DNA from: Escherichia coli
GTDB lineage: Bacteria; Pseudomonadota; Gammaproteobacteria; Enterobacterales; Enterobacteriaceae
Length of the DNA stretch: 64,000 nt
Assembly (NCBI RefSeq): GCF_022846255.1
Contig: NZ_AP025682.1
Direction: 5' to 3' (one strand)
Of the stretch, positions 55,651-56,179 are shown piece after piece. The notes beneath the pieces are model-generated. The model had not been told where the DNA came from. It ran no database searches and saw only the letters and a program-made list of their open reading frames with translations. Made by a program: the position numbers and the translations under genes. Positions within the stretch are counted from its first letter, which is position 1; the number at the start of each line of letters is the position of its first letter.

Positions 55651-56179
55651 CAGAAGCGATCCTCTTATGAGATGTAGGGTGACATGGCGATGCTCATTTC
55701 GTAGCCATAATCTAAAAATATCTACATTTCTGAAAAATGCGCATAAAAGTTACATATTGTTTTCTTATTGTGATCAAAAACAACAAATTAATAACAAATA
55801 ATGTGAGGGATAAGAATTGGGTTGAAAGGAAATGAATAATTAAAACAATATATTAAGTGTGCTTATACTCTTTTTCGAACTGGTGGCATTTGTTTAAATG
55901 CTATTTAAACTGCTTTTCCAGAGTTCAACTTACTGAGTTCCGTGTCGACTAATGTGAGTAAGATCAATCGCATCCAACCTATGTTACTTGATGGAATCGA
56001 TAACAATATTAATGAATATACAGATTCCGGGAAGGCTGGCTATGGGGGCAAATTATTCTCTTTCTGGCAACAGGTAAATAACAGTGACCATTTGTCGAGA
56101 AGCTGATACTAAGCTGAGGGATACTGTATATGTCTGGACTGTAATTGGATGAATTCTATTCAGGGCGGGTCAGGACCAA

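Follow-up and report, generated by a model that had tools for sequence, protein, structure and literature searches.

The promoter of csiD is one of the best-studied sigma-S promoters. As published, it depends on sigma-S, is induced by carbon starvation and is activated by cAMP-CRP, Lrp and H-NS; secondary sources place the centre of the CRP site at -68.5 (literature) or at -69.5 (RegulonDB). The repressor CsiR, also called GlaR, represses csiD until it is relieved by glutarate. The published CsiR sites read TTGTN5TTTT and ATGTN5TTTT and lie 6 nt apart, and CsiR ChIP-seq yielded a peak in the csiD promoter. The gene for tmRNA, ssrA, is a known phage integration site. In the window, the stretch of 64,000 nucleotides of Escherichia coli DNA that we analysed, these two systems are neighbours, and the features that frame the region between them are the following.

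54673-55650, minus strand: coding sequence of csiD/glaH (glutarate dioxygenase), from the list of open reading frames and the glaH annotation in matching E. coli genomes
56181-56205, minus strand: intrinsic terminator of ssrA, predicted at 56205-56184 and strong, AAAGCCCGCTGATGCGGGC followed by T6
56206-56332, minus strand: ssrA 3' trailer, common to K-12-type strains at about 89-91% identity
56216-56229, minus strand: palindromic hairpin GGAGTCGCGACTCC in the ssrA 3' trailer, seen in the sequence
56333-56695, minus strand: ssrA (tmRNA) with tag peptide ANDENYALAA, found with Rfam RF00023 (295.8 bits) and ARAGORN

csiD is the first gene of csiD-lhgO-gabDTP, and the orthologue in the window heads lhgO-gabD-gabT according to the open reading frames and the annotation of identical and near-identical genomes. 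The next gene upstream of csiD is ssrA, also on the minus strand, with smpB beyond it, and the ssrA terminator is kept in other Escherichia and in K-12-type strains that lack CP4-57. The ssrA-csiD intergenic region measures 682 bp (55651-56332). Its csiD-proximal three-quarters, a 500-bp tract at 55651-56150, had been described in the original prediction as an AT-rich, non-coding region directly upstream of csiD. Both the position next to csiD and the AT-richness were borne out, GC content being 35.0% in 55651-56150 versus 52.1% in the whole window, with a minimum of 26.5% within the tract (200-bp windows). It was also correct that no open reading frame of at least 60 aa lies inside the tract, where the longest are 44 and 54 aa. 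The proposed end at 56150 did not hold, as the tract continues through to the terminator of ssrA (56181-56205) and to ssrA itself (at 56333); the trailer and the terminator (56181-56332) complete the intergenic region. A 60-aa ATG open reading frame on the plus strand (56149-56331) starts at the edge of the tract and lies antisense to the trailer and the terminator of ssrA. Pfam gave no match for it, RefSeq genomes do not annotate it, and it is probably spurious.

We conclude that the tract consists of two parts with different histories, the csiD promoter (55651-55797) and a distal spacer (55849-56181), and we assign this reading a probability of roughly 0.82. The biology of the tract is already known and its configuration is ordinary. 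The elements of the csiD-proximal part, and the segment that separates it from the spacer, are listed below.

55651-55708, minus strand: putative 5' untranslated region of csiD, about 58 nt
55660-55666, minus strand: Shine-Dalgarno sequence AAGAGGA, seen in the sequence 9 nt before the ATG, its GAGG invariant in 19 species
55708 (±1), minus strand: predicted csiD transcription start, an A, back-calculated from the CRP centre at -68.5/-69.5 and the position of the TCACA half-site
55715-55720, minus strand: putative -10 hexamer TATTTT, within CsiR operator 2
55715-55727, minus strand: CsiR/GlaR primary operator 2, ATGTAGATATTTT, an exact match to the published ATGTN5TTTT
55734-55746, minus strand: CsiR/GlaR primary operator 1, TTATGCGCATTTT, one mismatch to the published TTGTN5TTTT, 6 bp from operator 2
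55738-55743, minus strand: putative poor, weak -35-like sequence TGCGCA, overlapped by CsiR operator 1
55755-55765, minus strand: A-rich UP-like stretch AGAAAACAATA at -47 to -57, assigned from its position
55766-55787, minus strand: putative cAMP-CRP site, a 22-mer, assigned by K-12 orthology, with GATCACAA invariant in 19 species
55769-55784, minus strand: 16-bp core of the CRP site, GTTGTttttgaTCACA on the minus strand, centred between 55776 and 55777
55798-55848, no strand: fast-evolving AT-rich segment, alignable with K-12, 15 of 51 positions differing

In the pairwise alignment the window and K-12 were near-identical from the ATG to about -150, with 141 of 147 positions identical over 55651-55797 (6 differences). 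We further aligned 19 Enterobacterales (Escherichia, Pseudocitrobacter, Citrobacter, Salmonella, Pluralibacter, Shimwellia, Trabulsiella, Hafnia, Leclercia, and Enterobacter), and the similarity across genera started just upstream of the CRP site and took in GATCACAA, AAACA, AAATGTAGATATTTTTA, and TTATGGCTACGAAAT. Divergence of the promoter from three other Escherichia lineages was 1.4-4.1%, versus 13-22% at csiD four-fold sites; 55651-55797 is therefore under strong constraint. The experimentally defined csiD control region ends together with the cross-genus conservation, at about -90 relative to the start, or 147 bp before the ATG, and the primers of the published CsiR study bracket exactly csiD promoter DNA of the 55651-55797 type. 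The K-12 alignment, the footprint in 19 Enterobacterales and the published csiD promoter all support the earlier reading of the tract as the csiD regulatory region. An intact copy of so well studied a promoter adds nothing new.

A plausible CRP site, TGTGATCAAAAACAACA, had been proposed at 55749-55765, about 100 bp upstream of the csiD start. This sequence occurs once in the window, at 55769-55785, which is 20 bp away from the proposed position and 119-135 bp upstream of the ATG; positions 55749-55765 read GTTACATATTGTTTTCT and are unrelated to it. As quoted, the motif has 7 bases between its half-sites, whereas the canonical spacing is 6 bp. At 6-bp spacing the second half becomes ACAAC, which leaves only one good half-site (TGTGA/TCACA), in line with the word half-site used in the original prediction, and 3 of the 10 core positions mismatch TGTGAN6TCACA. 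In a CRP consensus-pattern scan the proximal site did no better than chance: matches to TGTGAN6TCACA with three mismatches were not enriched (169 in the window vs. 211 ± 12 in shuffles). The pattern match was rejected as independent evidence for the site, and because it is at chance level the CRP call rests on orthology and phylogenetic footprinting. GATCACAA, with the TCACA half-site, is invariant in the alignment of 19 Enterobacterales and aligns base for base with K-12, where the orthologous half-site lies. The comparison supports the proposed half-site, within 55766-55787, as the orthologue of the K-12 csiD CRP site. The start at 55708 was derived from the -68.5 figure, so that its spacing from the CRP site is circular and not an independent check.

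For the remaining elements, we infer the assignments of the start site, the -10 and the UP stretch as well as factor binding in this strain. Operator 2 lies inside the footprinted and SPR fragments as these are defined by the published primers, and AAATGTAGATATTTTTA, in the operator 2 region, is nearly invariant in the 19 species. Operator 1 reads TTAT here versus TTGT in the published site and in K-12. The G/A position is polymorphic across Enterobacterales, and since A is the majority state the G-to-A change was rejected as a derepressing mutation. In the A-rich stretch at 55755-55765, AAACA is invariant in the 19 species. A distal half-site of an UP element is reportedly present at the csiD promoter, going by the title of work by Germer from 2001, and by its position AGAAAACAATA is a candidate for this half-site. 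The block TTATGGCTACGAAAT at 55696-55710 is invariant in the 19 Enterobacterales. It spans about -2 to +13 of the predicted start, outside both primary CsiR operators, and may be among the secondary CsiR sites reported, or may reflect a constraint on the start site or discriminator. In the proposed arrangement, RNA polymerase with sigma-S would use a weak core promoter (TATTTT as the -10, a poor -35) and start near 55708. cAMP-CRP on a half-site-type target near -68.5 (55766-55787) would be required and the A-rich UP-like stretch would help, while the GntR-type repressor CsiR/GlaR would sit on two operators overlapping -35 to -10 and would be released by glutarate.

The csiD coding sequence itself carries 59 differences from K-12 in 978 positions, and 17% of its four-fold sites differ. 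Divergence of this size is comparable to that between the window and other Escherichia species (13-22%), the local background being about 97% identity, and it points to an allelic dimorphism of old standing or to recombination beside the ssrA hot spot.

The distal part of the tract had been left unexplained, with a conservation analysis proposed for it. We ran this analysis, and it points to a lineage-specific ancestral spacer that lies outside the characterised promoter.

55849-56181, no strand: distal spacer, single-copy and non-coding, about 330 bp, absent from K-12-type E. coli

When 5426 complete E. coli genomes were searched with megablast, they fell into two classes. The whole 682 bp is carried by 1100 of these genomes, and about 4080, including K-12, match 55651-55848 only, at about 90% identity. 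The distal segment alone was found in 1103 of the 5426 complete E. coli genomes, ST131 among them, in one copy each and at no less than 95% identity, and in the 30 matches listed no annotated feature lies under the spacer match. Phage and plasmid records showed no similarity to the spacer, even at low stringency. Homology with K-12-type strains stops at 55848 towards csiD and at 56182 towards ssrA. In the interval between, these strains have ypjA, ypjC, ileY, and the ygaQ pseudogene, and K-12 itself also has CP4-57. Word-7 blastn detected no trace of the spacer in the K-12 ypjA-ygaQ segment, and homology between the two was rejected. Outside E. coli, cryptic-clade Escherichia carry the spacer, and with ssrA adjacent it is present in Escherichia sp. 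E1V33 and E. whittamii. The E2748 group and L011, a third lineage of species level, have it too. E. albertii and the other genera lack it and have only the promoter of about 147 bp in common. Because of this distribution across Escherichia lineages, we take the spacer to be the ancestral Escherichia state and K-12 to be derived, through replacement by ypjA-ileY-ygaQ. About 20% of E. coli keep this ancestral ssrA-csiD spacer, and no reference annotation describes it.

In 709 E. coli genomes ssrA, spacer and csiD are contiguous as in the window. In the other class, 391 of the 1100 spacer-bearing genomes, an element such as a P2-like prophage lies between ssrA and the spacer. These elements carry integrases and come with a duplication of 33-37 bp of the ssrA 3' end, and they fit ssrA as a known phage integration site. 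We read the spacer as the ancestral sequence that joins the ssrA terminator to the csiD promoter and was left unoccupied; in many strains prophages integrate at the ssrA 3' end, just beside it.

Directly past the ssrA terminator, at almost one point (about 56172-56195), the spacer borders on unrelated DNA that varies from strain to strain. Examples of this DNA are ypjA in K-12-type strains, the terminator of another gene in L011, an IS3-like end in L088 and L089, and other DNA within the terminator arm in L086; L087 has a PvuRts1I-like gene nearby. The interval at about 56172-56195 looks like a recurrent recombination junction distinct from the att site at the ssrA 3' end. On the far side of ssrA, the smpB-ssrA intergenic segment (56696-56908), which holds the ssrA promoter, differs from a K-12-type genome at 45 of 213 positions, and the corresponding figures are 0 of 363 for ssrA (56333-56695), 7 of 483 for smpB (56909-57391), and 17 of 149 for the ssrA trailer. 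About 1100 genomes have the smpB-ssrA haplotype of the window and about 4300 have the K-12 type, a split that parallels the presence of the spacer. Elsewhere in the window, a tandem tRNA cluster at 26479-26988 (the argQ/Z/Y/V-serV region of K-12) can be aligned to K-12 in several registers, an indication that the copy number of the Arg-tRNA repeat unit differs in this strain.

Most evidence indicates that the spacer is essentially neutral, non-coding sequence with no required function. Its divergence from the three other Escherichia lineages was 7.5%, 14.6%, and 19.4%, versus 13%, 20%, and 22% at four-fold sites; it evolves at 57-88% of the four-fold-site rate and is thus somewhat less diverged. 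Indels are many and include 11- and 12-bp deletions specific to some lineages. A palindrome, TTTAAATAGCATTTAAA, lies in 55893-55909, and indel points fall after 55927 and after 55896. E1V33, E. whittamii and L011 have an extra 12-bp tandem unit, CAACAAATGAGC, after the palindrome, and these three together with the E2748 group (L085-L089) have 11 extra bases, GAAGTAACTCC, after AGTAAGTT; both the tandem unit and the GAAGTAACTCC insertion are absent from the E. coli type. The spacer has no Rfam match at E-values up to 1, a spurious Leu_leader match falling on the terminator only, and no terminator lies inside it. RNA folding was not in excess on either strand (z-scores of +0.5 and +0.4 vs. shuffled controls). 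Promoter-like matches numbered 4, versus 2.7 ± 1.9 expected, and not one of them is conserved; on this chance rate and lack of conservation, sigma-70-type promoters were rejected for the spacer.

The verdict of no function may be wrong for one stretch of the spacer, an invariant block of 22 bp.

55948-55969, no strand: 22-bp invariant block, GATTGATCTTACTCACATTAGT on the minus strand, the longest invariant run in 6 sequences from 5 lineages
55953-55968, no strand: CRP/FNR-like palindrome core, TGTGAGTAAGATCAAT on the plus strand, two mismatches to TGTGAN6TCACA

The block does not vary in any aligned lineage, and the next invariant run is half its length. Column shuffling gave P about 0.002, and by this measure neutral drift seems a poor explanation of its invariance. 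We considered that the spacer holds a second functional CRP-family site, for CRP or FNR, at 55953-55968, as an extra input to csiD that K-12 would lack. We regard this as unlikely, with perhaps one chance in five. Sites with two mismatches number only about 16 in the 64-kb window, so that the expectation for 335 bp would be about 0.08. TGTGA is perfect in one half and the other, imperfect half fits the TTGAT of FNR, and the block closely resembles the lac CRP site. Such a site could act through an upstream promoter of class II type (-10 TAAGTT at 55927-55932, start near 55919): TAAGTT sits where a CRP site at -41.5 would need its -10, and the fit is seen in E. coli, L007, and L085. TAAGTT is, however, mutated in two lineages, L009 and L011, and the candidate -10 reads TGAGTT or GAGAGTT in E. 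whittamii and L011, with the block itself unchanged. Alternatively, the distal site could act by upstream CRP binding or looping. The distance from the block to csiD shifts by 23 bp between lineages and the centre of the block lies at about -252 from the known start, an unusual position. A recurrent second CRP site upstream of csiD was looked for in other genera and not found, and no comparable site is present there. K-12 regulates csiD normally without the block, and in E. coli AH19K002 (L094), a human blood isolate, an IS3-family insertion lies inside the block, at the equivalent of about 55960. The same isolate has a prophage integrase upstream. A role of the block as an integrase attB was rejected, the interruption in AH19K002 being an IS3 insertion and not an integrase-borne element.

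Slightly more doubtful still is the full proposal that 55948-55969 would be a working site, providing the glutarate/GABA operon with an additional cAMP- or oxygen-responsive input. If this were true, ST131 and the cryptic clades would have an extra input, in the form of a second upstream promoter or a distal activator or looping site, and K-12-type strains would have lost it when the ypjA-ygaQ segment replaced the spacer. The block is a candidate element by which extraintestinal pathogenic lineages might regulate glutarate/GABA catabolism in a strain-specific way.

A coding function was considered for the longest open reading frame of the distal part.

55942-56106, plus strand: 54-aa open reading frame with a GTG start, not a conserved gene

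That this frame is a decayed or lineage-restricted small protein gene is very improbable. It is open in the E. coli type, its first 36 or so codons are readable in all lineages, pN/pS is 0.3-0.7, and a few old annotations name it a conserved hypothetical protein. Against this, in-frame stops or frameshifts occur in 3 of the 5 lineages (L007, L085, and L009), the GTG start has no Shine-Dalgarno sequence, and neither Pfam nor NCBIfam gave a match. Among 5.8 billion proteins it corresponds to only 5 tiny Escherichia clusters named hypothetical, with none outside Escherichia, and it is unannotated in the RefSeq records among the matches listed. In six frames of 335 bp, chance would be expected to produce an open frame this long (about 0.4 by our own estimate), and the part of the frame that overlaps the invariant block is unchanged at all three codon positions. 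The coding reading was rejected on the missing family match and the frame broken in three lineages.

The least probable reading of all, that the distal part is a mobile-element scar or attachment remnant (the end of a prophage or island) or a small RNA gene, draws on the adjacency of the spacer to ssrA as a known integration hot spot and on the several different sequences that abut it at about 56172-56195 in different strains, but the spacer is single-copy and syntenic with ssrA and csiD in several Escherichia species, phage and plasmid records held nothing similar even at low stringency and the ssrA 3' end is not repeated within it, on which grounds the scar was rejected, and the small RNA was rejected on the lack of an Rfam family, of an internal terminator and of folding beyond z-scores of about zero (+0.5 and +0.4).

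The reading of the tract as a conserved csiD promoter followed by a lineage-specific spacer can be set beside three known systems. At the ssrA 3'-end hot spot, which is occupied by CP4-57 in K-12 and by P2-like and Stx phages in other genomes, the spacer directly follows ssrA; in the window the hot spot is empty, without an integrase, a duplicated ssrA end or phage-like DNA. The lac CRP site, TAATGTGAGTTAGCTCAC, has a perfect TGTGA half-site, the flanks and the 6-bp spacing in common with the distal block, TAATGTGAGTAAGATCAAT. The second half of the block is TCAAT, whereas the canonical sequence is TCACT or TCACA, and unlike canonical CRP sites the block has no conserved core promoter at class I or class II distance. 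The closest counterpart is the csiD promoter of K-12. The two promoters share the downstream gene, csiD, the TCACA half-site, operator 2, and the distances between all elements; they differ in operator 1, TTGT in K-12 and TTAT here, and in two more changes that fall between operator 1 and the CRP site. Upstream of about -140 they part, K-12 having the end of the ygaQ pseudogene and its terminator, whereas the window has the spacer and then ssrA.
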